Shown in pieces: positions 3,116-54,725 of a DNA stretch of 64,000 bases (the stretch's first letter is position 1; the number at the start of each line of letters is the position of its first letter). The translations under genes and the position numbers were made by a program. Under the pieces are notes generated by a model. The model was not told the origin of the DNA and did no database searches. It worked only from the letters and a program-made list of their open reading frames with translations. This stretch comes from Candidatus Microgenomatus sp. (GTDB lineage Bacteria > Patescibacteriota > Minisyncoccia > UBA6257 > GWB1-50-10): assembly GCA_020724805.1 (NCBI GenBank), contig DYGI01000001.1, positions 175,157-239,156 on the forward strand, in the 5' to 3' direction.

Positions 3116-3186
3116 TGCGGGATGGGAGAATCGAACTCCCGCTCTCAGTTTGGAAAACTGACGTTCTGCCACTAAACTAATCCCGC
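3116..3186 (-). tRNA. tRNA-Gly (anticodon TCC)
   Basis: Cloverleaf GCGGGAT-TA-GTTT-AGTGGCA-GAAC-G-TCAGT-TTTCCAA-ACTGA-GAGC-GGGAG-TTCGATT-CTCCC-ATCCCGC-A with a 4-nt variable loop. No encoded CCA. The loop could be mis-read as CCA (Trp), but the stem register gives TCC. Confidence 0.75.
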
Positions 3187-3262
3187 TTCTTCAGGGCTAG
3201 AATACACAATAAATCACGCGAGGTACAGGGTTCTAATTTGCCGAGGATGACGCCCGTAGGAT

Positions 3263-3886
3263 ATGATGGGCTCGATGAATTTTGCGAAGCTCAAAACACC
3301 AAAAATACTGATGCGTGCCGCACTCCTTCTTGTAGGGGTGGGGCTGCTCGCGTATTTGGTGGGTTCGAGTGTGGCGGCATCGCGCCTCCCCGAGGAATTT
3401 GTGCGCGCACGTCAAAATGCCGCACTTACAAGTCAGGACATCGTGGACCTCACCAAACTCACGAGCGAACGACTTGCCGAAGTGAATCTTTTGGAGTTGA
3501 AGGGCGACATCGTGCGGGCGCTTACGGTGGTTGCAGATGCGCGCACTTCAAACCAAGCCGCCTACAGTAAGGCGTTCGAGCTTACTCAGGATCTCCAAGA
3601 GCTTGCGAAGTCGCTCGGTGGAGTCCCTTCGATAGCCAAGCAGCGGGAGGGTTCCGAGGCAGTTGCCATTGAACTTTCGCTTGTGTCCGAGTTTATCATC
3701 TATACCCAGAAGGTGGATACATTTTTGGACGCACTTGAACGCGCCATTCGTTTCAATGTTGAATCGAATCGCGCTGCTGCGGCGGCCGCACTCGACGAGG
3801 TGAACGCGAAGGTGGTCTCTATCAACGCGCTGAATAATGCGTTTCGGAGAGCCATAGGAACCTTCGACGCTCCGGAAGGGGAATAG
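3263..3886 (+). CDS. hypothetical membrane-anchored protein
   Basis: 207 aa. N-terminal TM/signal segment (AALLLVGVGLLAYLVGSSVAA), rest Ala/Leu-rich helical. Start ambiguous (M at 3263, 3266, 3275 or 3311). Confidence 0.45.
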   Translation: MMGSMNFAKLKTPKILMRAALLLVGVGLLAYLVGSSVAASRLPEEFVRARQNAALTSQDIVDLTKLTSERLAEVNLLELKGDIVRALTVVADARTSNQAAYSKAFELTQDLQELAKSLGGVPSIAKQREGSEAVAIELSLVSEFIIYTQKVDTFLDALERAIRFNVESNRAAAAAALDEVNAKVVSINALNNAFRRAIGTFDAPEGE

Positions 3887-3968
3887 AAGGCGTTCCCGGC
3901 GATACGGCAAAAAAAGAGCCCGCGACCTACTTGGTCGGGGCTCACACGTCTTGTTGCGCGCACCTTTT

Positions 3969-4466
3969 TCACGGACGCCTCTTCCGGCCTTCCTTACATC
4001 CGGTGCACTTCGTGGCAACGGGAACCGCTTCGAGTCGCTCTTTGGGGATGAGCTCTCCGCACGATTCACACACGCCGTATGCTTTTTTCCCCATCCTTTG
4101 GAGTAGGACTCCTACCGTCACAGGTTGATGCTCCGCATGAAGCGATTCGACACACAGAATGGTCTTCCCAAGCAACTTCTCCGCATCGAGGAGGGAATTG
4201 CAAAAATTCGCTCCCTTGTCGGATATTATTCCAGCGACCTCCCTGTCCTGGGATTCTCCCCCTCCCTCCATATGGCTGGAGTATATATTCGATTCGAAGT
4301 GCTCGCGGAGCGACGCTCCGATCGGTTCGTAGGTATCCACGGTTTCCATTTTCCTTATATCCATGAGTTTGCGGAGTCCGTGGAGTGTGGAGAGACTGTG
4401 GAACATCGTGACGCCATTTCCGCCTGATGGGGGAATGCGTGTTGCAGCTAGAGCCGTTTTACCCAT
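3969..4466 (-). CDS. DksA/TraR-family C4 zinc-finger protein with N-terminal extension
   Basis: C-terminal CESCGELIPKERLEAVPVATKCTGC (C-x2-C-x17-C-x2-C). Strong SD aagggagg 6 nt before the ATG at 4466. An internal start at about 4364 is possible. Confidence 0.55.
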   Translation of the reverse strand: MGKTALAATRIPPSGGNGVTMFHSLSTLHGLRKLMDIRKMETVDTYEPIGASLREHFESNIYSSHMEGGGESQDREVAGIISDKGANFCNSLLDAEKLLGKTILCVESLHAEHQPVTVGVLLQRMGKKAYGVCESCGELIPKERLEAVPVATKCTGCKEGRKRRP

Positions 4467-4713
4467 GGTACCTCCCTTGATGCTTGTGATGGATAGAATC
4501 GTGAATTACTAGGCCAATGTGTAGGTGGCCTTCATTCGCGCCGCACGACTCCCTCCACCGCGTACTCTCGTACCGGTTGGTGCATAGGAATCTCCCTCCT
4601 TTCCAATGAGAATTTAGGAACCTCACTTACGATACTATGCAAGACAAATGTGTCAATTATGGTAGGCACATTCAGCCTGCTGGCTTCAGTACTTCCTTAC
4701 CTTCGTGCGTCAG

Positions 4714-4784
4714 TCGGGGCGCCGAGAGTCGAACTCGGTCTACCTGCTCCCAAAGCAGGCGTACTGCCGTCATACGCCGCCCCG
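4714..4784 (-). tRNA. tRNA-Pro (anticodon TGG)
   Basis: CGGGGCG acceptor, anticodon arm CCTGC-TTTGGGA-GCAGG, T-arm CCGAG-TTCGACT-CTCGG, discriminator A, no CCA. Position 8 is G (unusual). Confidence 0.7.
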
Positions 4785-4831
4785 TACCCGTTTACCTTAC
4801 GCACTTTTTCATTTACCATCAACCTGAATCG

Positions 4832-4903
4832 CCCCCCGTAGCACAATGGATAGTGCAGGGCTCTTCTAAGGCCTTGATGTGGGTTCGATTCCTACCGGGG
4901 GGA
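4832..4903 (+). tRNA. tRNA-Arg (anticodon TCT)
   Basis: CCCCCCG acceptor, D-arm GCAC-AATGGATA-GTGC, anticodon loop CTTCTAA, T-arm GTGGG-TTCGATT-CCTAC, CGGGGGG-A, no CCA. Confidence 0.8.
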
Positions 4904-4912
4904 CAAGCAAGG

Positions 4913-4934
4913 AAATATGCGAAAGGCATATTTT
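4913..4934 (+). terminator. rho-independent terminator after tRNA-Arg
   Basis: aaatatgc-gaaag-gcatattt plus T. Confidence 0.55.
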
Positions 4935-4957
4935 CGAGCGCGGGCGCCTGGCCGTAA

Positions 4958-4971
4958 GTACCGGGGACAAG
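4958..4971 (+). repeat. direct partial copy of the tRNA-Arg 3' end (mini version of the tRNA-linked duplication)
   Basis: gtaccggggacaag, versus tRNA 3' end ctaccggggggacaag about 65 nt upstream. Confidence 0.35.
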
Positions 4972-4987
4972 TAAGGGAATTAATCAC

Positions 4988-5725
4988 ATGTTTTTAACGA
5001 TTCTTGGCGCAAGCATAATCGGAAGTGTAGTTGCCCTTTCTGGAGGCGCGCTCCTGTTGTGGCGCGCGGAAAAAGCGCGGAAAATCTCGCTCGTCCTCGT
5101 GAGCTTCGCGGCGGGCGCACTTCTTGGCGCGGCGTTCTTCGACCTCCTTCCCGAGATGCACGAAGTGCTTCCCACGAGCGCGGTGTATGGAAGCGTGGTA
5201 GTCGGGATTCTCATTCTCCTTTTCTTCGAAAAATTTCTGAAGTGGTATCACTGTCACGACAAAACGGTGTGCGAGTATCACACATTCTCAAGCTCAATTC
5301 TTTTTGGCGATGCGGTCCACAATTTTCTTGACGGGGTCGCGATTGCCGCGAGCTTTTTTGTGAGTGTGCCGGTAGGAATTGCCACCACGGTCGCAGTGTT
5401 TTTCCATGAGGTACCTCAGGAAATAGGGGACTTCGGCGCACTTCTCCATGCGGGTTATTCGCGGGCGAAGGTGTGGTGGCTGAACGTCGCGACCTCACTG
5501 GCGACGCCAATCGGCGCCGTGCTCGCGTATTTTTTTCTCCCGTTCTTCCAAAATTTCCTCGGTTACTTCCTTGGAGTTGCGGCGGGAGCGTTCATTTACA
5601 TTGCGGTTTCCGACTTGATGCCCGAGATTCGGCATCACGCGGCGCCGAAGGAATTCCTCCATTTTTTCATGATCCTACTCGGCATCGTATCTATTATTCT
5701 TGTGGGACTGGTAGTGCCGGAGTAA
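4988..5725 (+). CDS. zupT: ZIP family divalent-metal (zinc) transporter
   Basis: 245 aa, multi-TM. HEVPQEIGDFGALL and HNFLDGVAIAASF signature motifs of ZIP/ZupT. Confidence 0.85.
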   Translation: MFLTILGASIIGSVVALSGGALLLWRAEKARKISLVLVSFAAGALLGAAFFDLLPEMHEVLPTSAVYGSVVVGILILLFFEKFLKWYHCHDKTVCEYHTFSSSILFGDAVHNFLDGVAIAASFFVSVPVGIATTVAVFFHEVPQEIGDFGALLHAGYSRAKVWWLNVATSLATPIGAVLAYFFLPFFQNFLGYFLGVAAGAFIYIAVSDLMPEIRHHAAPKEFLHFFMILLGIVSIILVGLVVPE

Positions 5726-5748
5726 AACCAGCAATTTGTATTTAGAAC

Positions 5749-5775
5749 AAAAAACCGCCATACGGCGGTTTTTTG
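5749..5775. terminator. bidirectional terminator (zupT / tRNA-Phe transcript)
   Basis: aaaaaccgcc-ata-cggcggtttttt, with an A-tract on one side and a T-tract on the other. Confidence 0.65.
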
Positions 5776-5930
5776 TCTTTGTGCCGCGGGAGGGAATCGC
5801 CTGCAAGTTCCTCTCTGCGGACTCGCAGGCCGCCCCTCGGTCGCATGCGCGACCTGCGGTCTTCGATTTCCGATCACGAGTCGCCCCGCGGCTCGCTTCC
5901 CGCGTGACTGCGTTCACTAGCGTTCTCTTG
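5776..5930 (-). repeat. tRNA-linked element, Phe copy (family member 2)
   Basis: 3' of tRNA-Phe. Ends with a 24-nt direct copy (tctttgtgccgcgggagggaatcg, 5776-5799, one indel) of the tRNA 3' region (5926-5948). Shares blocks with the Gly copy: gcccctcggtc(gc)atg, cctgcgg..ttcgatt(t/c)c. Confidence 0.5.
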
Positions 5931-6002
5931 TGCCGCGGGAGGGAATCGAACCCCCGACGCCAGCCTCTTCAGGGCTGCGCTCTACCACTGAGCTACCGCG
6001 GC
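5931..6002 (-). tRNA. tRNA-Phe (anticodon GAA)
   Basis: GCCGCGG-TA-GCTC-AGTGGTA-GAGC-G-CAGCC-CTGAAGA-GGCTG-GCGTC-GGGGG-TTCGATT-CCCTC-CCGCGGC-A; no CCA. Confidence 0.85.
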
Positions 6003-6120
6003 AAGTGATGAGCGAAATGTGCAAAATGAATATATCAAACTTTCCCCGCTTAATAAAGGAAGTTTGACACATCATTATTTTTATGTTTTACTCAACACGG
6101 CACATATCGGAGGAGACACT

Positions 6121-6498
6121 ATGGAAATCAATCATGGTCCAACCGTACTCGTGGTGGACGACGATGTCGCGTTTCAGGAAGTTCTCCAGTATTGGGGTTC
6201 GATGAGCGGCGTGAAAATAATTTCCGCGCTCACCACCGACGAAGGGCTCGAGAATTTCGAAGAATCGCGCCCGAATGTGATCGCAATGGATGGGCAAATT
6301 CCGGGGAGTGTGGATTCCTTGGAATTAGTGCGCATGATGCGGGCGAGAGGATTCGATGATCACATCATCGCAATCTCGAGCTACTCCGAAGTTCGGAAGA
6401 AGTTTATGGCCGGGGGAAGCAAGGAAGGATGCGACCTGGAGTGCGAGAAAGCAAACCTCACCTCCATGCTCGAGAATGTTCTCGACCTTCACCTTTGA
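6121..6498 (+). CDS. single-domain response regulator (CheY-like receiver only)
   Basis: 125 aa. TVLVVDDDVAFQEV...VIAMDGQIPG...IIAISSY matches the receiver-domain acidic pocket/phospho-Asp/T-loop layout. SD ggagga 6 nt upstream. Candidate TTGACA-17-TTTACT promoter at about 6064-6092. Confidence 0.65.
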   Translation: MEINHGPTVLVVDDDVAFQEVLQYWGSMSGVKIISALTTDEGLENFEESRPNVIAMDGQIPGSVDSLELVRMMRARGFDDHIIAISSYSEVRKKFMAGGSKEGCDLECEKANLTSMLENVLDLHL

Positions 6499-6509
6499 GG
6501 TAACCATAT

Positions 6510-6580
6510 TCCACGCGCATTTCGCGCGTGGAGCAGAAAACGCCTGGTAGGACGATTGCACCGGGCGTTATTTTTTTTCG
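6510..6580. terminator. convergent terminator region between receiver gene and DedA gene
   Basis: Perfect hairpin tccacgcgc-atttc-gcgcgtgga, then cgcctgg..ccgggcg followed by T8. Confidence 0.5.
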
Positions 6581-7227
6581 GCGTGGAAGTCCACTTCTCC
6601 CTCTTCGTCCAGTTGAATTTTGTTGCCGGCCTGGAACGATTTTTGGAGTATTTTCTTAAGGAAGTGCTCGCCCGCGAAAATCAGGATCATCGTAATGAGA
6701 ATGCCGATTTCTATCTGGCGAAACACTTTTTCGGTACGAAGGTAACTGAAGCCGGAGGCAAGGAAGTATGCTATGGCGGTTGCGGAGAAAAACCAGAGCA
6801 TCACACTTGTGAGTTGGGATTTCATGAATCGCCAAAACCCCACCTTCGACCAACTTACCGCGAGTACTGCAAATATGTTCGCGGCGACGAGGAATTTTGA
6901 GATAATCATCAATTTATTGATGTTCTCCTTCACGTAGTACATGTAGAACTGTGCTCGGCGGCTATGCTTCATTTTCATGTACCACCGCCATCCGAGGCGG
7001 GTGTTCCGCACTACGCGTCCGAGAAGGTAGAGGAGCGTATCACCTACGATGAGTGAAGTTACGGCCGGAATGATGAATCCACCCCACGTGAGACTGCCGC
7101 CGACGACAAGGAAGACGGCCACGAGCACGACCACTTCGCCCTGGAAAAGGATGGCGAGCGCGATGATCCAGTGGCTCCACTCGGGGTACTGGAGCACGAG
7201 TTCGCCTAAGTTATCGAGGATTCCCAT
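6568..7227 (-). CDS. DedA/TVP38 family membrane protein
   Basis: 219 aa, multi-TM. FQGEVVVLVAVFLVVGGSL...VGDTLLYLLGRVV resembles the DedA GE..G...GD..Y.LGR core. Confidence 0.5.
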   Translation of the reverse strand: MGILDNLGELVLQYPEWSHWIIALAILFQGEVVVLVAVFLVVGGSLTWGGFIIPAVTSLIVGDTLLYLLGRVVRNTRLGWRWYMKMKHSRRAQFYMYYVKENINKLMIISKFLVAANIFAVLAVSWSKVGFWRFMKSQLTSVMLWFFSATAIAYFLASGFSYLRTEKVFRQIEIGILITMILIFAGEHFLKKILQKSFQAGNKIQLDEEGEVDFHAEKK

Positions 7228-7275
7228 GAAATATTGCCCCCATCGGGGACCCGTACTATTATACGGGAGTCAGAT

Positions 7276-7350
7276 GGTGCCCGTAGTTCAATGGCAGAAC
7301 GCCTCTCTGTGGAGGAGGTCACGTGGGTTCGATTCCCATCGGGCACCCCA
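7276..7350 (+). tRNA. tRNA-His (anticodon GTG) with G-1 and encoded CCA
   Basis: G(-1)-GTGCCCG-TA-GTTC-AATGGCA-GAAC-G-CCTCT-CTGTGGA-GGAGG-TCAC-GTGGG-TTCGATT-CCCAT-CGGGCAC-C-CCA. Confidence 0.85.
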
Positions 7351-7429
7351 GTAACAAGTCGTCCTTTCGCTGTGTTATCCTTTATAGGTAAAGGGTCGAC
7401 ACACGAAAGTCGGAAACCGTATATCTACC

Positions 7430-8365
7430 ATGAAAAAGAACATTGCAGTAATTGTTATTTCGGCGGCGCTTGTGGTGCCCATGTTTGTGGGCGCACAAGA
7501 CGGCGCTACGAACGCGTCCGAAAGGGCGCGCGAAGAAGTGAAGGAATTGCAGGAAAGCTTAAAGAAAGAAGCGGAAAGGATTCGTGAGCAGGCGAAGCAA
7601 GAAACGGAACGTGTCCGTGGAGAGGTGCGCGCGCAGGCACAAAACATCTCGCCGCTCACTAAAGAGGCGGTAGAAGCGTTGAAAATGCGTAGAGAGGAAG
7701 CGCAGAAGCAGATGGAAGCGGCTCGCGAAGCGGCGAAGCAACAATTGGAAATGCGCCGTGAAGAGGCAAAGCAGCTTATGGAGACGAAGAGGGAAGAGCT
7801 GAAGCAGCGCCTGGAAATATTGAAGGATCAGAAAAAGGCGGAAATCGTAACACGTGTATACGACAAGGTGAGCGAATTGAATGCGCGCCTTACGAGCCAC
7901 TACCTTAAAGTGTTAGAGCAGATCGAAAAAGTGCTCGCGAATGTTAAAAGCCGCACCGACAAAGCGGAGACGGCGGGGCTTAACGTCGCAGCGGTACGTG
8001 CGGCAATCACGAGCGCGGAAGCAGCAATCGCCACGAGCCGTGCGGCGGTGCAGGTACAAGCGGGGAAGAGCTACTCAATAAACGTAGACACTTCCTCCGA
8101 GACAGTTGCGAGCTCCACGCTTCGTTCCAACGTTGCGGCGGCGCGTGACGCCCTGAGGAATGACCTGAACGCGGTGCGCAACACCGTGCGTGCGGCGCAT
8201 GAGGGGGTACGCGTGGCGGCGGTAACGCTCGCACAGATTCCCCGCGTGGACGACGTGGATAATGATGACGATGAGGACGACGACGAGAACGCCACATCCA
8301 CGGCAACTTCCACGCCTCCTACGACAACCTCGACTGCCACTTCAACGGCGACGAGCACGCCATAA
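7430..8365 (+). CDS. secreted coiled-coil protein with acidic and Thr/Ser-rich tail, hypothetical
   Basis: Signal peptide MKKNIAVIVISAALVVPMFVGAQ, long Glu/Lys/Arg/Ala-rich heptad region, DDVDNDDDEDDDE then TSTATSTPPTTTSTATSTATSTP. Confidence 0.5.
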   Translation: MKKNIAVIVISAALVVPMFVGAQDGATNASERAREEVKELQESLKKEAERIREQAKQETERVRGEVRAQAQNISPLTKEAVEALKMRREEAQKQMEAAREAAKQQLEMRREEAKQLMETKREELKQRLEILKDQKKAEIVTRVYDKVSELNARLTSHYLKVLEQIEKVLANVKSRTDKAETAGLNVAAVRAAITSAEAAIATSRAAVQVQAGKSYSINVDTSSETVASSTLRSNVAAARDALRNDLNAVRNTVRAAHEGVRVAAVTLAQIPRVDDVDNDDDEDDDENATSTATSTPPTTTSTATSTATSTP

Positions 8366-8693: not shown

Positions 8694-9182
8694 ATGCTTA
8701 CGCTCGAAGAAATGCTCGTTCGTCTCGCGGTTGCGGTGGCGCTTGGTGCTATTGTCGGATTTGGTCGGGAAATGGCGGGAAAAGAAGCGGGGGTGAGGAC
8801 CGACATCATTGTGGCGGCGGGTGCGGCGCTTTTCACCGTCGCGGCACTTATGCTGCCTTATCTTATTGCGAGCTCTCCCGAGCATTTGAATGACATAATG
8901 GCACGAAACAGCGGGTTCCTTTCGCTTATCGGGAATGTGGTGGTCGGTATCGGTTTTCTCGGTGCCGGCATCATCGTAAAACAAGGGGTACACGTACGGA
9001 GCGTGACCACTGCGGCGACGGTGTGGTTTGTGGCGGCGCTTGGCGTGCTCTCTGGCCTTGGGCTTCTCCTTTTCGCCGGCATCGCGGGCGTAGCACTCAC
9101 TATTCTCCTCGCAATTTTAGGGAAGATAGATCTCAAGCGTGCGCTTGCGGAGGAAGGGCACGGCGCACATCGGGATTTGTAG
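8694..9182 (+). CDS. MgtC/SapB family membrane protein
   Basis: ORF 8664 trimmed to M11. MLTLEEMLVRLAVAVALGAIVGFGREMAGKEAGVRTDIIVAAGAALFTV matches the MgtC N-terminal signature. Confidence 0.65.
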   Translation: MLTLEEMLVRLAVAVALGAIVGFGREMAGKEAGVRTDIIVAAGAALFTVAALMLPYLIASSPEHLNDIMARNSGFLSLIGNVVVGIGFLGAGIIVKQGVHVRSVTTAATVWFVAALGVLSGLGLLLFAGIAGVALTILLAILGKIDLKRALAEEGHGAHRDL

Positions 9183-9186
9183 GAGC

Positions 9187-10482
9187 ATGAAATCTTTCTA
9201 CATGGATTACGCCGCGGCGACGCCGGTGGACCCTCGCGTATTTGGCGCGATGCGTCCGTATTTTGATATGAAGTTCGGGAACCCCGGCTCCCTCCATGCG
9301 CGCGGAGCGGAAGCTCTCGCCGCGCTTGATAGCGCGCGCGAAACGGTTGCGCACGCGATAGGGGAAGATTTTCGAAACGTGGTGTTCACTGCGTCCGCGA
9401 CGGAGGCGAATAATCTCGCGCTCCGTGGCGTGGTGCGCGGGTATAAAGACTTGGGTTCAGGGTCTAGGAAAAAAAATTCTCTAACCCCTAACCCCCACAC
9501 CCTAACTCCTCGGATCGTTGTTTCTGCGGTGGAGCATGATTCGGTACTTGAAACGGCGCGGGATATGGAACATGCGGGCGAGGCGGAAGTGGTAATAATT
9601 CCCGTCGATAAAAAAGGAGCGGTGGACCTCAAGAAGCTGGAAGCGGCGCTCGACGAAAGGACCGCGCTTGTGTCGGTGATGTACGTCAATAATGAACTTG
9701 GCACGGTGCAGCCGATAGCTGAGATTGCGGAAATCGTCCGCCGTCACAAGTCGCCAGTGAATGGTTATCCGTTATTTCACACCGATGCAGCGCAGGCGTT
9801 TCTATACTACCCATGCAATCTCAAAGAACTTGGAGTGGATCTGATGACGCTCTCCTCGCAAAAAATATATGGACCGAAAGGCGCAGGCGCGCTGATATTA
9901 GGGAATAGGGTTCAGGGTCTAGGGTCTAGAAAAGAGAGTTCCCTAATCCCGAGTCACTATGCTCTAGCCCCCATCCTTACGGGGGGCGGTCAGGAATTCA
10001 ATCTCCGTGCCGGTACGGAAAATGTGCCGGCGATAGTGGGGCTTGGTATTGCCGCGGGGCTCGCCGAAAAGGAGCGCTCAAAAAACTTTACCAGAACCGA
10101 AAAGGTTCGTGATGTTTTTGTGAGCGAGTTGAAACGCATGATTCCCGGCGCGGAAGAAAATGCACGAGGGGACGCGCCGCACATCGCAAATATCGCGTTC
10201 CCGGAAGGTATATCGGCGGAGGACCTCCTCGTGCTTTTCGACCGTGCGGACATCGCAGCGAGTCCTGGTGCGGCGTGCAGCGCGCGAGCGCTCACCCTCT
10301 CTCACGTGCTCCGCGCCATAGGAATTTCGGACGAGCGCATCACGCGGAGCATTCGCTTCAGTTTCGGCCGCGGTATCACCGAGAAAGACGCACGCGACGC
10401 GGCACGCGTAATCGGGAAAATCGTAACGTCGTTACCCGTTGCGAGCGGCGTTACCTTTTCAAGGAAAAATCGTAATATATAG
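9187..10482 (+). CDS. cysteine desulfurase (class V aminotransferase, IscS/NifS-like) carrying two in-frame repeat insertions
   Basis: ORF 9139 trimmed to M17 (SD aggag). MDYAAATPVDPRV, FTASATEANNLAL, LSSQKIYGPKGAGAL, GGGQEFNLRAGTENV, SPGAACSA align to IscS. Two segments (9451-9507, 9898-9972) are absent from canonical IscS. Confidence 0.8.
   Translation: MKSFYMDYAAATPVDPRVFGAMRPYFDMKFGNPGSLHARGAEALAALDSARETVAHAIGEDFRNVVFTASATEANNLALRGVVRGYKDLGSGSRKKNSLTPNPHTLTPRIVVSAVEHDSVLETARDMEHAGEAEVVIIPVDKKGAVDLKKLEAALDERTALVSVMYVNNELGTVQPIAEIAEIVRRHKSPVNGYPLFHTDAAQAFLYYPCNLKELGVDLMTLSSQKIYGPKGAGALILGNRVQGLGSRKESSLIPSHYALAPILTGGGQEFNLRAGTENVPAIVGLGIAAGLAEKERSKNFTRTEKVRDVFVSELKRMIPGAEENARGDAPHIANIAFPEGISAEDLLVLFDRADIAASPGAACSARALTLSHVLRAIGISDERITRSIRFSFGRGITEKDARDAARVIGKIVTSLPVASGVTFSRKNRNI
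9451..9507. repeat. palindromic TAGGG/CCCTAA-family repeat inserted in frame in the cysteine desulfurase (19 codons)
   Basis: ttgggttcagggtctagg-aaaaaaaattct-ctaacccctaacccccacaccctaact: left arm GGGTCTAGG, right arm CCTAACCC(n). Encodes LGSGSRKKNSLTPNPHTLT between the conserved GYK and RIVVSAVEH. Confidence 0.6.
9898..9972. repeat. second in-frame palindromic TAGGG-family repeat in the cysteine desulfurase (25 codons)
   Basis: ttagggaatagggttcagggtctagggtctag-aaaagagag-ttccctaatcccgagtcactatgctctagccccc. Shares gggttcagggtctagg with the first copy. Confidence 0.6.
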
Positions 10483-11283: not shown

Positions 11284-12493
11284 AAGAGAGGTTCTTACAC
11301 TCATCGTAATTGCGGGAATAACGGGAGGCGCGATTGGAGGCGCGATGGCGCCTTCCTTCGTGTCCGCCAGTTTCCTGGACGATATAAAAACATTTTTCGG
11401 CATCCCGACGCCGGTACCCGAGGAGCCGAGTCCCGCGCCAAGTCCCACCGTACCTCTCTACAAGCCGGTCATCGATTATGAAGAAGCAGTGGTGAGCGCG
11501 GTAGAAACCGCAACGCCCTCAGTGGTGTCCATTGTTATCTCCAAAGATGTGCCGGTTATCGAACGATGCCCCTACGATCCCTTTGGCGATCTCCCTCCCG
11601 AGTTCCGCGATTTCTTCGGAGGAGGATTCGAAGGATTTTACGCGCCATGCGAGCGCGGTACCGAACGCCGTGAAGTAGGCGGCGGCTCCGGTTTCATCGT
11701 GTCTTCGGACGGGCTTGTGGTGACGAATAAACATGTGGTGGCTGACACATCCGCGGACTACACCGTATTTACGAGTGACGGAAAGAAATACGACGCGGAG
11801 GTGATAGCGCGCGATCCGTTGCAGGACCTCGCGGTTCTTAGAATCCCCGGGGCCGGATTTACGTCGGCGAAGCTCGGCAATTCCGACTCGTTGAAACTCG
11901 GTCAGACCGCGATTGCGATAGGGAATTCGCTCGGCGAGTTTAAAAACACGGTCTCGGTGGGCGTTATTTCCGGCCTTGCGCGGAACATCACCGCGTCTGG
12001 CGAAGGATTCGGCACCGAACTTATTCAGGGCGTCATCCAAACCGATGCGGCCATCAACCCAGGGAATTCCGGCGGCCCCCTTCTGAATCTCAAAGGGGAG
12101 GTGATAGGTATCAATGTGGCAACCGCCTCGGGCGCCGAGAATATCGGATTTGCCATTCCCGTAAACCGCGCGAAGCGCGCGATAGAGTCCGTGAAACGGA
12201 CCGGCACCATCGAGTCACCGTACCTTGGCATACGCTATGTGATGACCGAAGAAGGAGCGCGGGTGGGGGGCACGAAAGAAGGTCCCGGGGTTATCCCGAA
12301 TTCTCCGGCGGCTGCGGCTGGTATCCGCGCGGATGACCTTATAGAGAAAATGAATGGCGAGCAGTTGAACGAAGAAAACCCGCTCGGTGCGGTCATCCAG
12401 AAATATGGCGTAGGGGATACGGTGACGCTTACGGTGAAGCGGGGAGAGGAAACGCTCGCGATTCCCGTAACGCTCGGGAAGCGTCCCGAGTGA
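11270..12493 (+). CDS. HtrA/DegP-family serine protease with C-terminal PDZ domain
   Basis: GSGFIVSSDGLVVTNKHVV (His box), DLAVL (Asp), GNSGGPLLNLKGEVIGINVA (Ser box), then PDZ-like GIRADDLIEKMNGEQL. Confidence 0.85.
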   Translation: MKFGKREVLTLIVIAGITGGAIGGAMAPSFVSASFLDDIKTFFGIPTPVPEEPSPAPSPTVPLYKPVIDYEEAVVSAVETATPSVVSIVISKDVPVIERCPYDPFGDLPPEFRDFFGGGFEGFYAPCERGTERREVGGGSGFIVSSDGLVVTNKHVVADTSADYTVFTSDGKKYDAEVIARDPLQDLAVLRIPGAGFTSAKLGNSDSLKLGQTAIAIGNSLGEFKNTVSVGVISGLARNITASGEGFGTELIQGVIQTDAAINPGNSGGPLLNLKGEVIGINVATASGAENIGFAIPVNRAKRAIESVKRTGTIESPYLGIRYVMTEEGARVGGTKEGPGVIPNSPAAAAGIRADDLIEKMNGEQLNEENPLGAVIQKYGVGDTVTLTVKRGEETLAIPVTLGKRPE

Positions 12494-12593
12494 GCATTAG
12501 TCCCGTTAGAAGTCGCGCTCGTCCGCGATTGTACTCAATCGGGACGAGTCCCTCGCGGGACCGCTGACGCGGCTACTTCTAACGGGATTAGCA
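12494..12593. repeat. 100-bp compound palindrome directly after the htrA stop
   Basis: Outer arms gcattagtcccgttagaagtcgcg / cgcggctacttctaacgggattagc. Inner hairpins ctcgtcc..ggacgag and gtccc-tcgc-gggac. Confidence 0.5.
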
Positions 12594-12635: not shown

Positions 12636-12642
12636 AGAAGGG

Positions 12643-12696
12643 CATAGGGGATAGGGTCTAGAAATTTTCCTAACCCCTAAACCCTAAACCCTAATT
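12643..12696. repeat. TAGGG-family repeat with telomere-like (CCCTAAA)n arm in the clpB 5' UTR
   Basis: gcataggggatagggtctag-aaattttc-ctaacccctaaaccctaaaccctaa, ending 4 nt before the clpB ATG. Confidence 0.6.
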
Positions 12697-12699
12697 CTC

Positions 12700-15345: not shown

Positions 15346-16018
15346 CGCGCTCGCCCTCGCGCTCATTTCGCTTTGGCTTGCGGCCGGGGAATTCGGGGTC
15401 GGCTCATTTGTCCTTTTCGCGCTTGCGCTCGGCGCATTGACGCTCCAATTTTCAGAATGGCGTCGCGTGCGATTCTCGTGGTATGCGCTTACGCTGGTGA
15501 GCGGTATATTGTTTTCTCGCGCGACCCCGATGCTTATGGCGCCGTGGTTCGAGGCGGCGCTTGTGGGCGCGCTTAGCGCACTTCTTTTTCTTTCCGCCGC
15601 GGCGCTTCGTGATCCGCACCGTATCATTCCCCGCGTGCTTACCGTGACGCTCACGCTCCTCGCCGCGTTCCTCTTTTTCCGCGATTCATCGTGGCTCACA
15701 TTCGCGGTGTTTATATTGGTTACGGCACTCACCGCACGCGATGAGGCGCGCTCATGGGGCGCGCTTCGGGTGGGGGAAGGGAAGCTCATGGGCGCCGCGG
15801 TGGCGCTTGTGGGCGCCGAACTCGCCGCGTTCATCGGTTTACTCCCCCTAGGGTCCGCGCGTGCAGCGGCGCTCGCCGCATTCGTGCTTCTTTTGGTCCG
15901 CGAGGGGCTTTCCGAAGCCCTCCAAGGCGGACTCCGCCCGGTGGTCCTGTTCCGCGGTCTCGCCGTGTTTTTTACGTGCGCGGTGCTTCTCTTTGCATCA
16001 GTACATTGGGGAGTCTAG
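15287..16018 (+). CDS. hypothetical polytopic membrane protein
   Basis: ORF 15278..16018 (246 aa), Ala/Leu-rich with at least 6 hydrophobic helices. Overlaps the clpB 3' end by about 60 nt in another frame, so the start is uncertain. Confidence 0.35.
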   Translation: MERKLPFRLPSQTAWRSSASALALALISLWLAAGEFGVGSFVLFALALGALTLQFSEWRRVRFSWYALTLVSGILFSRATPMLMAPWFEAALVGALSALLFLSAAALRDPHRIIPRVLTVTLTLLAAFLFFRDSSWLTFAVFILVTALTARDEARSWGALRVGEGKLMGAAVALVGAELAAFIGLLPLGSARAAALAAFVLLLVREGLSEALQGGLRPVVLFRGLAVFFTCAVLLFASVHWGV

Positions 16019-16040
16019 GGACTAGGGGATAGGGTATAGT
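16015..16040. repeat. TAGGG-rich inverted repeat, left flank of the four-helix-bundle gene
   Basis: tctagggactaggggatagggtatag. Partner at 16396-16428 in inverse orientation. Confidence 0.5.
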
Positions 16041-16046
16041 GAAAGA

Positions 16047-16406
16047 GTGAAAAGCCACCGGGAGTTGGAAGTTTGGAAAAGAAGCATGGAACTCGTAAAG
16101 AAAGTCTACGAGCTTACCAGTAAATTTCCCCCATCAGAGACGTGCGGAATCATAAGTCAAATCCGCCGTGCCTCCGTTTCTATTCCTTCGAATATCGCAG
16201 AAGGATATCAGCGTGGCTCTCGAAAGGAATATTTGAATTTCATAAGAATCTCTTTTGGATCTGGTGCAGAGCTCGAAACACAGCTTGAGTTGGCAAAAGA
16301 GCTTTCGTTAGCGCCCTCGAAGGATTTTGAGGTCCCAGAGCAACTTCTCAATGAGGCTATGCGGATGCTGAATGGACTTATCCACAGCCTCGCTTCTAGG
16401 CCCTAG
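16047..16406 (+). CDS. four-helix-bundle protein (23S rRNA intervening-sequence protein family)
   Basis: 119 aa, GTG start. ELEVWKRSMELVKKVYELTSKFPPSETCGIISQIRRASVSIPSNIAEGYQRGSRKEYLNFIRISFGSGAELETQLELAK matches the conserved core of this family. Confidence 0.8.
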   Translation: MKSHRELEVWKRSMELVKKVYELTSKFPPSETCGIISQIRRASVSIPSNIAEGYQRGSRKEYLNFIRISFGSGAELETQLELAKELSLAPSKDFEVPEQLLNEAMRMLNGLIHSLASRP

Positions 16407-16428
16407 CCCCTATACCCCAGTCCCTATC
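16396..16428. repeat. TAGGG-rich inverted repeat, right flank of the four-helix-bundle gene
   Basis: ctaggccctagcccctataccccagtccctatc. Reverse complement gatagggactggggtataggggctagggcctag mirrors the left flank modules. Confidence 0.5.
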
Positions 16429-43312: not shown

Positions 43313-43318
43313 TAATTA

Positions 43319-43352
43319 CTAGAGTATAGGGTTTGGTGATTAGGGTCTAGTG
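43319..43352. repeat. TAGGG-family repeat copy in the divergent promoter region between the sugar transferase and dsbA-like genes
   Basis: tagagtatagggtttggtgattagggtctagtg. Confidence 0.45.
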
Positions 43353-43375
43353 AAGAAAATGCAGGGGTTGACTTT

Positions 43376-44230
43376 GTGTCGGCAGAACCTACGATAGTCC
43401 ATATGGATAATCAAATCACGGCCGAAAGCGGAACAAAGAAGCGCGACGTATTGCTCCCCGCGAGCATCGTTATCGCGGGCGTGTTGGTCGCAGGGTCGGT
43501 AATTTGGGCGGTAGGGAAAAATGCGGAAGGACCTTCGCTCGGCGCAGGAATAAACGCACCTGCAGGTCCGGACGTTGCTTCGATGAGTGCGGTGAACGAG
43601 AGCGACCACGTCCGTGGAAGCCGCGATGCGAACGTAGTGATGGTGGAATATTCGGACTTCGAATGTCCTTTCTGTAAAAGGTTTCACGATACGATGAAAG
43701 GCGTGCTTACTTACTATGGTAATGACGTCGCGTGGGTCTATCGGCAGTACCCCATCGAAGGACTTCATACAAAGGCGGTACGGGAATCCGAAGCGTCTGA
43801 ATGCGTCGCCTCACTTGGAGGGAACGATGCATTTTGGAAGTTTGCGGACCGCATTTTTGAAGTGACGCCGTCGAACGACGGACTCGATCTTTCTCTTCTG
43901 CCGGATATCGCGGAGTACGCAGGAGTGGCGCGCAGTGCATTCACCACGTGCCTTGAAGGAGGTACGCACGCAGGGACGGTTGCGGCATCGGTTGCGGAAG
44001 TGGAGCGCTTGGGAATAAGCGGTACTCCCTATATCGTATTCATTTCGAAAAAATCAGTGGACGCCGAGAATTTCAAATTCCTTGCCGAATTGAATCAACA
44101 GTTCGCCCTGCAATACCCGGGACGCCCCGTGCCGTTCGTGGTGGACGAAGAAAGTGGTCGCGTAGGTATGAGCGGCGCTTTTCCCCGGGATCTTATCGGG
44201 CAGATCATCGATGCGTTGCTGAAAGAGTAA
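43376..44230 (+). CDS. DsbA-family thiol:disulfide oxidoreductase, membrane-anchored
   Basis: 284 aa, GTG start. N-terminal TM (LLPASIVIAGVLVAGSVIWAV); thioredoxin-fold active site FECPFCKRF (CxxC). Confidence 0.7.
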   Translation: MSAEPTIVHMDNQITAESGTKKRDVLLPASIVIAGVLVAGSVIWAVGKNAEGPSLGAGINAPAGPDVASMSAVNESDHVRGSRDANVVMVEYSDFECPFCKRFHDTMKGVLTYYGNDVAWVYRQYPIEGLHTKAVRESEASECVASLGGNDAFWKFADRIFEVTPSNDGLDLSLLPDIAEYAGVARSAFTTCLEGGTHAGTVAASVAEVERLGISGTPYIVFISKKSVDAENFKFLAELNQQFALQYPGRPVPFVVDEESGRVGMSGAFPRDLIGQIIDALLKE

Positions 44231-44565: not shown

Positions 44566-45495
44566 ATGTACGACCTCATCATCATTGGCGGCGGCCCCGC
44601 CGGTGTTGCTGGCGCGATTTACTCCGCCAGAAAAAAGCTAAAGACCATAATCATCGCGGAAACCTTCGGCGGTCAGTCGCTCGTTTCCGCGTCCGTGGAG
44701 AACTGGATAGGGACTACGAAGATTTCCGGGCTTGAACTCGCCGAGATGTTCAAGGCGCATCTCAGGGCGCAGGAAGAATTGGAAGTGAAGGAAGGCGAGA
44801 GAGCGGCTGCGATCGTCGAGAAAGGCGACGGTTTTCTTGTGACCACACAGAAAGGAAGCGAGTACGAGACGAAAACAGTGCTTATGGCGACCGGAAGTGT
44901 GCGGCGCAAACTTGGAGTGCCCGGCGAGCGAGAGCTTGAAGGAAGGGGCGTGGCATATTGTTCCATTTGCGACGCACCGCTTTTTGAAGGGAAAGAAGTG
45001 GTGGTGGTGGGTGGCGGGAACTCGGGTCTTGAAGCGGTGGAGGACCTTCTGCCGTATGCGCGGCACATCACACTTATCCATAGGGGAGATTCGCTAAAAG
45101 GTGACCCGCAGACTCAAGAGCGGGTGCTTGCGGACAAGGGAAAAGTGACGATGGTGTTGAACGCGGAAACGCTCGCGATCGAGGGCGACACGTGGGTGCG
45201 CGGTATCCGGTATCGCGAGAAGGAGTTCGGCGAAGAGCGGACACTTGCGGCGGAAGGGGTATTTGTGGAGATTGGGCTCGACCCCGCGAGCGCGCTCGTG
45301 AAAGAACTTGTGGAAACGAATGCGCAGGGAGAGATAGTGGTGGACCCACGAACGCAGGCAACTTCTCGGAAGGGGATGTGGGCTGCGGGCGACGTGACGG
45401 ATGGGAAATATCGTCAAAACAATATTTCCGCGGGCGATGCGATAAAAGCGGTGCTCCACATTTACGAAAGCTTGCGCGTATCGGGTGTGGTATAA
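44566..45495 (+). CDS. thioredoxin-disulfide reductase-family flavoprotein (TrxB-like)
   Basis: 309 aa. FAD site DLIIIGGGPAGVAGAIYSAR, redox CSIC (canonical CAxC position), NADPH site VVVVGGGNSGLE, C-terminal GMWAAGDV. Confidence 0.8.
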   Translation: MYDLIIIGGGPAGVAGAIYSARKKLKTIIIAETFGGQSLVSASVENWIGTTKISGLELAEMFKAHLRAQEELEVKEGERAAAIVEKGDGFLVTTQKGSEYETKTVLMATGSVRRKLGVPGERELEGRGVAYCSICDAPLFEGKEVVVVGGGNSGLEAVEDLLPYARHITLIHRGDSLKGDPQTQERVLADKGKVTMVLNAETLAIEGDTWVRGIRYREKEFGEERTLAAEGVFVEIGLDPASALVKELVETNAQGEIVVDPRTQATSRKGMWAAGDVTDGKYRQNNISAGDAIKAVLHIYESLRVSGVV

Positions 45496-50517: not shown

Positions 50518-50538
50518 ACCCATTACCCATTACCCATT
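50518..50538. repeat. (CCCATTA)x3 tandem heptamer in the rpsU promoter region
   Basis: cccattacccattacccatta, preceded by TTGACC. Confidence 0.5.
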
Positions 50539-50554
50539 ACTCTTTACCATTGTT

Positions 50555-54370: not shown

Positions 54371-54443
54371 TGCCTCCTGCAGGGATCGAACCTGCGACCG
54401 TCTCCTTAAAAGGGAGCTGCTCTACCAACTGAGCTAAGGAGGC
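54371..54443 (-). tRNA. tRNA-Lys (anticodon TTT)
   Basis: GCCTCCT-TA-GCTC-AGTTGGTA-GAGC-A-GCTCC-CTTTTAA-GGAGA-CGGTC-GCAGG-TTCGATC-CCTGC-AGGAGGC-A; no CCA. Confidence 0.85.
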
Positions 54444-54540
54444 AGTTGGTTTTTTCTATAGTACCTGCGGATTTCGGTTTTCGCAATCGTTGGCACGTGC
54501 CCCGCGAACTTATACGAGTGGAATAAATTTCTCTCCGAGT

Positions 54541-54568
54541 AGCGTGGTGTAATTAATTACACCACGCT
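54541..54568. promoter_or_regulatory. perfect 14-bp-arm palindrome in the divergent tRNA-Lys/tRNA-Asn promoter region
   Basis: agcgtggtgtaatt|aattacaccacgct. Confidence 0.4.
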
Positions 54569-54653
54569 GTCATATGCAGTGGGCACATGAGAGGAGAGTT
54601 GAAAATGAAGGAGCGGTATAGCACAATAGGAACGCACTTTTAACAGTGTGTAT

Positions 54654-54725
54654 TCCCCGGTAGCTCAATGGTAGAGCGCCTCGCTGTTAACGAGTGGGTT
54701 GTAGGTTCGAATCCTACCCGGGGAG
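54654..54725 (+). tRNA. tRNA-Asn (anticodon GTT)
   Basis: TCCCCGG-TA-GCTC-AATGGTA-GAGC-G-CCTCG-CTGTTAA-CGAGT-GGGTT-GTAGG-TTCGAAT-CCTAC-CCGGGGA-G; no CCA. Confidence 0.8.

Follow-up and report, generated by a model that had tools for sequence, protein, structure and literature searches.

Heptamer-hairpin repeats lie in frame at two probable surface loops of a cysteine desulfurase gene in Candidate Phyla Radiation bacteria

Rickettsia palindromic elements (RPEs), which occur in Rickettsia, are about 100 to 150 bp long and encode a peptide that is conserved across the family. They are short palindromes found both between genes and in frame in conserved functional genes, where they are translated at positions compatible with the protein fold; arms built of heptamer arrays are not described for them in the review that covers them (PMC10969869). 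The G-rich heptamers of Xanthomonas and Nostoc (GGGAATC and GGGGAYT) and the short tandemly repeated repetitive (STRR) sequences of cyanobacteria are tandem arrays of 7-nt units with a tract of three to four Gs, about four units being preferred (PMC4692102). The Xanthomonas heptamers are dispersed and transcribed and often form convergent pairs on opposite strands, which are potential stem-loops, and the Xanthomonas and Nostoc heptamers are mainly intergenic, are under-represented on the coding strand of open reading frames (ORFs), and have been discussed as G-quadruplex formers (PMC4692102). A third group, the S23p-bearing intervening sequences (IVSs) of 23S rRNA, consists of segments of about 410 to 430 nt in which a loop that holds an S23p ORF is closed by a terminal inverted-repeat stem, with tandem heptameric repeats, variable in number, in the region of the stem (PMC4990558). 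[quoted passage not shown] Here, we describe two segments, at positions 9451 to 9507 and 9898 to 9972 of a 64,000-nt stretch of Candidatus Microgenomatus sp. (GCA_020724805.1, contig DYGI01000001.1, positions 175,157 to 239,156; hereafter the window), that lie inside a cysteine desulfurase gene and that an original prediction had likened to RPEs. We consider it likely, at a probability of roughly 0.78, that they are translated, in-frame members of a dispersed heptamer-hairpin family and that the two surface loops which hold them are permissive and serve as hot spots throughout a Parcubacteria clade.

The host gene (9187 to 10482, + strand) encodes a 431-aa type I cysteine desulfurase of the IscS/NifS kind, an assignment that draws on its ORF, Pfam and PDB matches, an AlphaFold (AF2) model and synteny. 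Its ORF is unbroken from 9139 to 10482, with the ATG at 9187 as the likely start; the Pfam domain Aminotran_5 (PF00266, E 1.3e-59), which represents the class V aminotransferase fold, covers aa 5 to 401; and the closest solved structures are human NFS1 and Escherichia coli IscS (E 7e-72 to 1e-63). The AlphaFold model has a mean predicted local distance difference test (pLDDT) score of 80 and a Foldseek template modelling (TM) score of 0.83 to NFS1/IscS. In an alignment of 36 desulfurases, H117, D200, Q203, K226 (the lysine that binds pyridoxal phosphate, PLP), C364 (catalytic) and R390 show no variation, and K226, H117, D200, Q203 and C364 line up with NFS1. The protein therefore combines the fold with the PLP lysine, the PLP-stacking His, the Asp and Gln of the PLP site and the flexible-loop Cys of type I cysteine desulfurases. 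The gene neighborhood (MgtC-IscS-SIMPL-HtrA-ClpB) is kept across orthologues, and the best BLASTP matches come from Brennerbacteria, Jorgensenbacteria and other Parcubacteria; the host belongs to the Candidate Phyla Radiation (CPR). As judged from its sequence, the gene is intact and codes for an essential-type sulfur enzyme; the single uninterrupted frame and the intact catalytic motifs that had been predicted are borne out by the 9139 to 10482 ORF and by the invariant catalytic and PLP-site residues.

Both elements share one architecture, namely a G-rich arm of 7-nt TAGGGNN units, an A-rich loop and a complementary C-rich arm of NNCCCTA units. Copy 1 (site 1; 9451 to 9507, + strand) consists of the G arm TTGGGTTCAGGGTCTAGG, an A-rich loop and the C arm CTAACCCCTAACCCCCACACCCTAACT, and translates as LGSGSRKKNSLTPNPHTLT. 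Copy 2 (site 3; 9898 to 9972, + strand) consists of a G arm with four GGG tracts at 7-nt spacing (9901 to 9924), the loop AAAAGAGAGTT and a degenerate C arm, and translates as LGNRVQGLGSRKESSLIPSHYALAP. These translations are the ones quoted in the original prediction, which was also right that the two segments share sequence: the 16-mer GGGTTCAGGGTCTAGG occurs exactly at 9453 and 9908, once in each element. When up to 3 mismatches are allowed, it has 7 matches in the window (0.32 expected), a number reached in 0 of 100 shuffles. An Rfam search, both at the gathering threshold and at E<=1, gave no match at the hairpins. When the desulfurase is aligned to NFS1 and IscS, the stretches at about aa 88 to 108 and aa 238 to 262 are left unmatched. 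As a baseline for the size of these sites, we took 77 canonical IscS/NifS genes, mostly non-CPR, from metagenomes and measured how far apart their conserved blocks lie. The spacer at site 1 is 66 nt in the window versus typically 15 nt in the canonical genes (a net gain of about 51 nt), and that at site 3 is 78 nt versus 30 to 39 nt (about 39 to 48 nt net), the latter gain being smaller than 75 nt because the 75-nt hairpin partly replaces the native loop. The earlier claim that 57 and about 75 nt are absent from canonical enzymes thus holds approximately at site 1, while at site 3 the figure of 75 nt describes the element and not the gain.

The two sites can also be placed on the protein. The AlphaFold model has pLDDT values below 50 at aa 92 to 103 and aa 242 to 255, at the inserts, and no confident regular structure there. 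By homology, site 1 follows the helix that ends at F89/Y90 of E. coli IscS, and site 3 stands in place of R219 to H231, the patch for CyaY, IscX and ThiI. Mutational mapping of E. coli IscS identified F89, R220, R223, R225, E227, G234 and R237 as surface residues required for binding ThiI, CyaY and IscX (PMC2854127). The inserts are therefore probably surface-exposed, and would add about 17 and about 13 to 16 disordered residues, in which the G arm would encode Gly/Ser/Arg-rich, the loop Lys-rich, and the C arm Leu/Pro/Asn/Thr-rich sequence. Predicted peptides that span the inserts (9451 to 9507 and 9898 to 9972) are DLGSGSR, NSLTPNPHTLTPR and VQGLGSR.

The repeat units were compared at the DNA level in ten syntenic or orthologous loci alongside the window. 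Heptamer hairpins are present at both of the same sites in 9 of these 10 loci, and their units are genome-specific: TAGGG/CCCTA in the window, L006, L007 and L129; TAGGC/GCCTA in the closest relatives, L001 to L003 (62 to 71% protein identity by BLASTP); AGGGAGT, in half-copies, in L004; GTGACAA/ATGTCAC in L128; and AGGAATC/GATTCCT in L130. L005 has no element at either site. The lengths of the elements are multiples of 3 at both sites in all 10 genomes. Orthologues that lack the segments, which the original prediction had proposed to look for, were found as P0006, P0040 and P0086, and truncated half-copies are kept in P0002, P0005 and P0009. In 85 parsable orthologues, site 1 spans 11 to 66 aa and site 3 11 to 48 aa, and many of them have a near-identical peptide at sites 1 and 3 of one and the same protein. 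Within a genome, the two sites have a mean identity of 0.70 (83 to 88% in three genomes, loops included), versus 0.50 to 0.55 for the same site between genomes. Across the 11 loci, Tandem Repeats Finder (TRF) detected 105 arrays of period 7, versus 24 of period 5 and 11 of period 8. Units of a genome's own family are found outside the desulfurase as well: an intergenic copy in L007 contains an 18-mer, CTAAACCCTAGTGGCTAT, that is identical in its genic copies, and the phosphoglucomutase (PGM) gene of L129 (Harrisonbacteria; 6578 to 7961) holds an in-frame hairpin of that genome's family (GFRVQGLGDRKNIKKNLNPQPSTLYP). We also scanned a 596-Gb genome collection at the DNA level with the pattern GGGNNNAGGGTCTAGNAA (14 fixed bases). 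Most matches were due to chance; among the matches listed were at least about 15 genuine hairpins in other CPR and in non-CPR genomes, as well as one more IscS orthologue, and the intergenic TAGGGNN-type hairpins among them came from Levyi-, Davies-, Staskawicz- and Saccharibacteria and some other phyla. Judging by these comparisons, both loops have been occupied either for long or repeatedly in a large clade of Parcubacteria, and their occupancy is not private to this genome. In-frame insertions of this kind had been predicted to be rare outside RPEs; in these CPR genomes they are common instead.

The PGM gene of L129 also holds a second hairpin with a different unit (NNESGVKDKVKNSIIRNSKFII), and its reading frame is broken in two where a solo heptamer arm lies (TGA at 7013, ATG at 7026), which could be a real split gene, a pseudogene or a sequencing error. 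In the CPR loci L008, L114, L124, L066 and L103, intergenic TAGGGNN/NNCCCTA hairpins often lie a few bases upstream of an ATG or abut a tRNA gene. Desulfurase orthologues range from 376 to 513 aa, and other types of insert occur at the same and at two further hot spots (alignment columns about 115-200, 305-360 and 525-580) in P0003, P0005, P0007, P0008, P0024, P0027, P0031, P0032, P0060 and P0105. These include a type of 40 to 50 aa ('ISRGTGRLFSPAEKSGLDSR...FRSKQIAPPNP'), a second type ('NSKLETRNPKQ...NVSDLGFRVSDL') and, in P0032, a 60-aa block rich in Gly, Val and Ser.

The likeness to RPEs can now be assessed. As with RPEs, the repeat in the window is palindromic and is found in frame in a functional gene as well as between genes. 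Unlike RPEs, the elements are 57 to 75 nt long, occur in Patescibacteria, are made of 7-nt units that vary by genome, encode peptides that are unrelated between genomes, and recur at the same two loops across orthologues. Since neither the size nor the conserved peptide of RPEs is found here, the elements are set apart from RPEs by description. The original comparison thus stands for behavior, in that these are dispersed palindromic repeats in frame in an intact gene, but not for architecture, for which heptameric inverted repeats and IVS stems are the closest match. Our limited literature search found no relevant papers on in-frame palindromic or heptamer inserts in CPR/Patescibacteria.

The same comparisons bear on the idea that selection at the protein level maintains the segments as lineage-specific loops, for example as a new partner surface that replaces the CyaY/IscX/ThiI patch, with the palindromy being incidental. 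Both sites do map to partner-binding patches of E. coli IscS, and peptides in the style of G-L-G-S ... L-x-P-x-x-Y-x-L-x-P recur in many orthologues. However, same-site peptides are unrelated between genomes (GLGSRKK..LTPNP, GQVTRDKD..MSHVTCHMSP and ESGIRN..IIHNSKFLIP), yet all are encoded by heptamer hairpins, and the identity of the peptide changes with the genome's repeat unit. Moreover, this DNA is also found outside genes, where each frame contains stops; insert sizes vary between 11 and 66 aa, and disorder is predicted for the inserts. We therefore regard selected protein loops as very unlikely, and clearly less likely than translated members of a repeat family. A possibility raised with the original prediction was that orthologues carry homologous peptides at the same positions without nucleotide-level palindromy. 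Peptides are indeed present at these positions, but so is the palindromy, and the sequence follows the repeat family of each genome.

How the elements sit in the reading frame provides a further line of evidence. The consensus of the G-arm unit carries a TAG and that of the C-arm unit a TAA or TAG, and, because 7 is not a multiple of 3, the consensus stop triplet falls in frame in every third unit. In eight genomes, the TAG position of the G arm reads TAG in 34 of 41 out-of-frame units, as opposed to 0 of 17 in-frame units (Fisher 1.8e-9), in which it reads CAG, TGG, TCG, AAG or TTG, all single-base variants. C-arm stops likewise occur in 14 of 24 units out of frame versus 0 of 8 in frame (p 0.004). 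Each desulfurase element is open in a single frame only, and intergenic copies have stops in all three frames. In other words, stops are removed in frame and kept out of frame, from which it follows that the elements are probably read through rather than excised. The opposite scenario, in which IVS- or intron-like segments are removed from the transcript to leave a canonical protein, draws on an architecture equal to that of 23S rRNA IVS stems, which are excised by RNase III (PMC4990558), and on a nearby copy that bears a gene for a 23S rRNA intervening sequence protein (IVP; see below). Against it, every copy examined is in frame and stop-free despite its stop-rich consensus, and at neither site does any of the 10 genomes have a length that is not divisible by 3. 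In addition, bacteria are not known to rejoin mRNA cut by RNase III. If the sequence is translated and under selection, a stop-rich repeat would be expected to stay open through single-base departures from its consensus, as it does at both sites in every genome, whereas an excised intervening sequence would not predict this; excision is thus less likely than translation, to the point of being highly improbable, and the inserts are probably translated in vivo.

Relatives of the two elements are found elsewhere in the window, at 12639, 16016/16403 and 43317, in agreement with the predicted wider intergenic family. The first is an intact intergenic hairpin (12639 to 12697) between htrA and clpB, with the structure (AGGGNNT)3, an 8-nt loop and (CCCTAAN)3-4, which ends 3 nt ahead of the clpB ATG (12701). 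It folds with a z of -3.1 into 5-bp helices separated by symmetric 2-nt internal loops, carries stop codons in 3 of 3 frames, and was the only copy picked up when a crude two-unit arm detector was run on the window. The second is an ORF-bearing element on the + strand, in which a left arm (16016 to 16039; TAGGGAC, TAGGGGA, TAGGGTA and a terminal TAG) and a right arm (16403 to 16426; CTAGCCC, CTATACC, CCAGTCC and a terminal CTA) form a 24-nt inverted repeat that is 83% complementary over 24 nt. The third is a solo G-type arm, TAGAGTATAGGGTTTGGTGATTAGGGTCTAGTGA (43317 to 43356), retrieved by repeat search upstream of the + strand ATG at 43424, for which no C arm was seen. GGG tracts at 7-nt spacing number three at 12640 to 12656 and three at 16018 to 16034, and the copies differ in unit number. 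Runs of GGG tracts at 45373 and 55685 were rejected as family members, as they are ordinary coding sequence.

As in the heptamers of Xanthomonas and Nostoc, the elements in the window are tandem 7-nt units (TRF period 7) with a tract of at least three Gs and about four units, and the AGGAATC unit of L130 resembles the GGGAATC of those organisms. Unlike those heptamers, which are not linked to S23p genes or to in-frame translation, the paired form in the window lies inside a conserved enzyme gene; its hairpin would compete with formation of a G-quadruplex. Very small mobile repeats of cyanobacteria are reportedly often located within heptameric tandem repeats, and sometimes in genes without a break in frame (the small dispersed repeats of Nostoc, Elhai et al. 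2008). Those are said to be units of 21 to 27 nt inserted into other repeats, whereas the hairpin of the window elements is made up of the heptamer array. The arms of the window elements, being inverted heptamer arrays, also amount to the terminal inverted repeats of a MITE. Unlike in MITEs, no direct repeat was seen by eye at the borders of the 9451, 9898, 12639 and 16016 copies, and the only ORF-bearing relative in the window encodes a four-helix bundle (PF05635) and not a transposase. REP and REPIN sequences are imperfect palindromes of 20-40 bp and differ in the GTAG or CGTC tag that they carry at one end, which is absent here: units in the window begin with CTAG, ATAG or TTAG, and GTAGGG is found in the L004 family only. 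From both REP/REPIN sequences and MITEs, the elements are further distinguished by arms that are tandem arrays instead of unique inverted repeats.

The intergenic copy ahead of clpB invites the question of whether the hairpins are instead selected mRNA structures, such as sites of processing (by RNase III or otherwise), determinants of stability or points at which translation pauses between folding units, that are kept by RNA-level selection with compensatory change. Complementarity of the arms is indeed kept at both positions in orthologues of 50 to 70% identity while both arms change (TAGGG:CCCTA to TAGGC:GCCTA), the related intergenic hairpin abuts the clpB start and heptamer arrays recur in the HtrA-ClpB spacer of L003, L006 and L130, and IVS stems of similar build are RNase III substrates (PMC4990558). 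On the other hand, these genomes also have the units in intergenic DNA, in other genes and surrounding IVP genes, some orthologues have no hairpin at one or both sites, half-copies persist in the three orthologues named above, and the genic stems in the window are degraded to the level of shuffled sequence. Considering both sides, we find RNA-level selection unlikely, and less likely than residence of a tolerated repeat, since neither the sharing with intergenic DNA and other genes nor the absence from some orthologues would be expected of a selected mRNA structure. As a separate observation, the htrA-clpB spacer holds heptamer arrays or hairpins with differing units in the window (12639-12697), L003 (13500-13720), L006 (5003-5031) and L130 (13815-13906), and a role of the hairpin in clpB expression, for example as a heat-labile structure, is conceivable.

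The ORF inside the arms of the second relative (16047 to 16406, + strand) encodes a 119-aa 23S rRNA intervening sequence protein of the S23p/four-helix bundle family (PF05635, E 5.2e-37), with a weaker match to bAvd as well. It lies 6 kb downstream of the desulfurase, and the right arm overlaps its stop codon. With its complementary stem, S23p ORF and heptameric repeats, the element as a whole (16016-16426) has the composition of an S23p-bearing IVS. The IVS of Coxiella burnetii, for comparison, is 428 nt long, carries an S23p ORF, has a terminal stem of 28 bp and contains heptameric repeats that vary in number, the first of which is where RNase III cuts (PMC4990558). Since the PF05635 gene lies inside heptamer arms, the window has an IVS-type element outside rRNA. 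Unlike IVSs, which RNase III excises and whose place is helix 25 or 45 of 23S rRNA, the copies in the window lie in an ORF or between protein genes, and no rRNA genes are found in the 64-kb window. Given that the same arms surround the S23p gene, the short hairpins are best read as ORF-less members of that family.

A similar arrangement was met by chance in a planctomycete locus (L035), in which an IVP gene lies between (GCATTAG)n and (GAATGCC)3, with 11 and 3 units by TRF. We also considered eight plasmid IVP loci, seven of them cyanobacterial and one from Gemmatirosa. In 5 of the 8 (L211, L212, L214, L216 and L218), inverted heptamer arrays lie within 90 nt of the IVP gene, and the remaining 3 have adjacent heptamer or octamer arrays. 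Across 40 kb of a Calothrix plasmid there are 3 period-7 arrays, 2 of which lie beside the IVP gene; across 25 kb of a Nostoc plasmid 2 of 5 do so, the rest being a hairpin that lacks an ORF and a lone arm, both built of the same unit. With a background density of period-7 arrays this low, and with the arrangement recurring in these loci and in the IVS of Coxiella, the association of IVP with heptamers is not a local accident. A scan of viral contigs with the IVP protein found no relatives. In cyanobacterial plasmids (L215, L218 and L211), IVP genes with their arrays separate cas6 from cas4, cmr2 from cmr3, and the two subunit genes of ribonucleotide reductase from each other, placements that would be expected of an inserted selfish element. 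As a tentative and rather doubtful proposal, S23p/IVP genes within inverted heptamer arrays may be the ORF-bearing form of one widespread selfish element, identical with the 23S rRNA IVS, and the ORF-less hairpins its miniature derivatives in intergenic DNA, in rRNA and, in CPR, in permissive loops of many conserved proteins, where they would be translated and continually re-homogenized to the current unit, with the Avd-like IVP protein taking part in copying or homogenizing.

For the two desulfurase elements themselves, reading them as translated members of the hairpin family implies the following course of events. As a single strand, the element would fold into 5-bp helices with 2-nt internal loops and an A-rich terminal loop. 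Copies that had entered the two solvent-exposed loops would be transcribed and translated with the desulfurase gene, and would persist because the loops tolerate them and because the stops of the repeat consensus are removed in frame. A resident hairpin would then be homogenized with, or replaced by, the current heptamer family of its genome, and such within-genome homogenization or replacement would be the reason why arm sequences co-vary between genomes. A history of insertion followed by homogenization is thus what the sequences suggest.

A number of points weigh against this reading. The window contains only about 5 family members in 64 kb, so that calling the family genome-wide is an extrapolation from the window. 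Reading of the flanks revealed no target-site duplication, RAYT (TnpA_REP), transposase or other mobility gene, although the ORFs in the window were not screened for transposase families. The genic hairpins have minimum free energies of -16.3 and -25.6 kcal/mol, which are no better than those of dinucleotide shuffles (z -0.74 and -0.41), which means that their palindromy has eroded; the predicted hairpin-forming arms are accordingly real in their complementarity, but degraded in both genic copies. The two copies in the window have an identity of 0.65 to each other, compared with 0.63 to 0.74 to the same-site copies of L006 and L007, and given this weak contrast they may be old; plain vertical descent of old inserts would fit the window genome as well as recent insertion does. 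Furthermore, the orthologues were found as called proteins, so that the absence of in-frame stops is in part a result of how they were selected. An artefact of assembly or sequencing would be a more trivial explanation, considering that the window comes from a contig of a metagenome-assembled genome and that an identical protein is recorded on one contig, a 92-kb entry at NCBI. It is excluded, as independent assemblies from many samples (including L118) show such inserts at the same sites.

Other features of the window are unrelated to this family. Directly after the htrA stop lies a separate palindromic element of about 95 to 100 nt (12495-12593), with outer arms at 12498-12516 and 12572-12590 (19 nt, 89% complementary) and a nested inner pair at 12471-12494 and 12534-12557. 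An intergenic tandem array of another heptamer unit, (ACCCATT)x4.4, occupies 50518-50548 between a stop codon and the next ATG, with no complementary arm visible. The ORF at 7430-8365 encodes a 311-aa protein rich in Ala, Glu, Arg and Lys, probably a secreted coiled coil, with an acidic run and a repeat of Thr/Ser/Ala/Pro (TSTATSTPPTTTSTATSTATSTP) at its end. Seven tRNA genes are arranged in two clusters (3116-7347 and 54371-54725), and the divergent pair at 54371-54443 (- strand) and 54654-54725 (+ strand) registers as a 47-nt inverted repeat.

For the biology of CPR bacteria, these results would extend the phenomenon known from RPEs, in which selfish palindromes are tolerated and translated in essential-type genes, to a further group of organisms. 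In CPR, such inserts appear to be frequent, and a large part of the odd length variation and of the low-complexity inserts of their proteins may be due to them; they can also mislead gene callers, alignments and structure prediction for these genomes. In the desulfurase, the inserts overwrite the IscS patches for frataxin/CyaY, IscX and ThiI, which is of relevance to the wiring of Fe-S and thio-cofactor pathways in these reduced genomes. Lastly, the link between heptamers and S23p/IVP genes in Patescibacteria, Planctomycetota and Cyanobacteria, which matches the IVS of Coxiella, leads to a testable hypothesis for the origin of rRNA IVSs and for the role of this large family. If the proposal of one widespread element is true, it would provide a function for a protein family that has been without one since the 1990s, and a general source of the variation in protein length across CPR proteomes would have been found.

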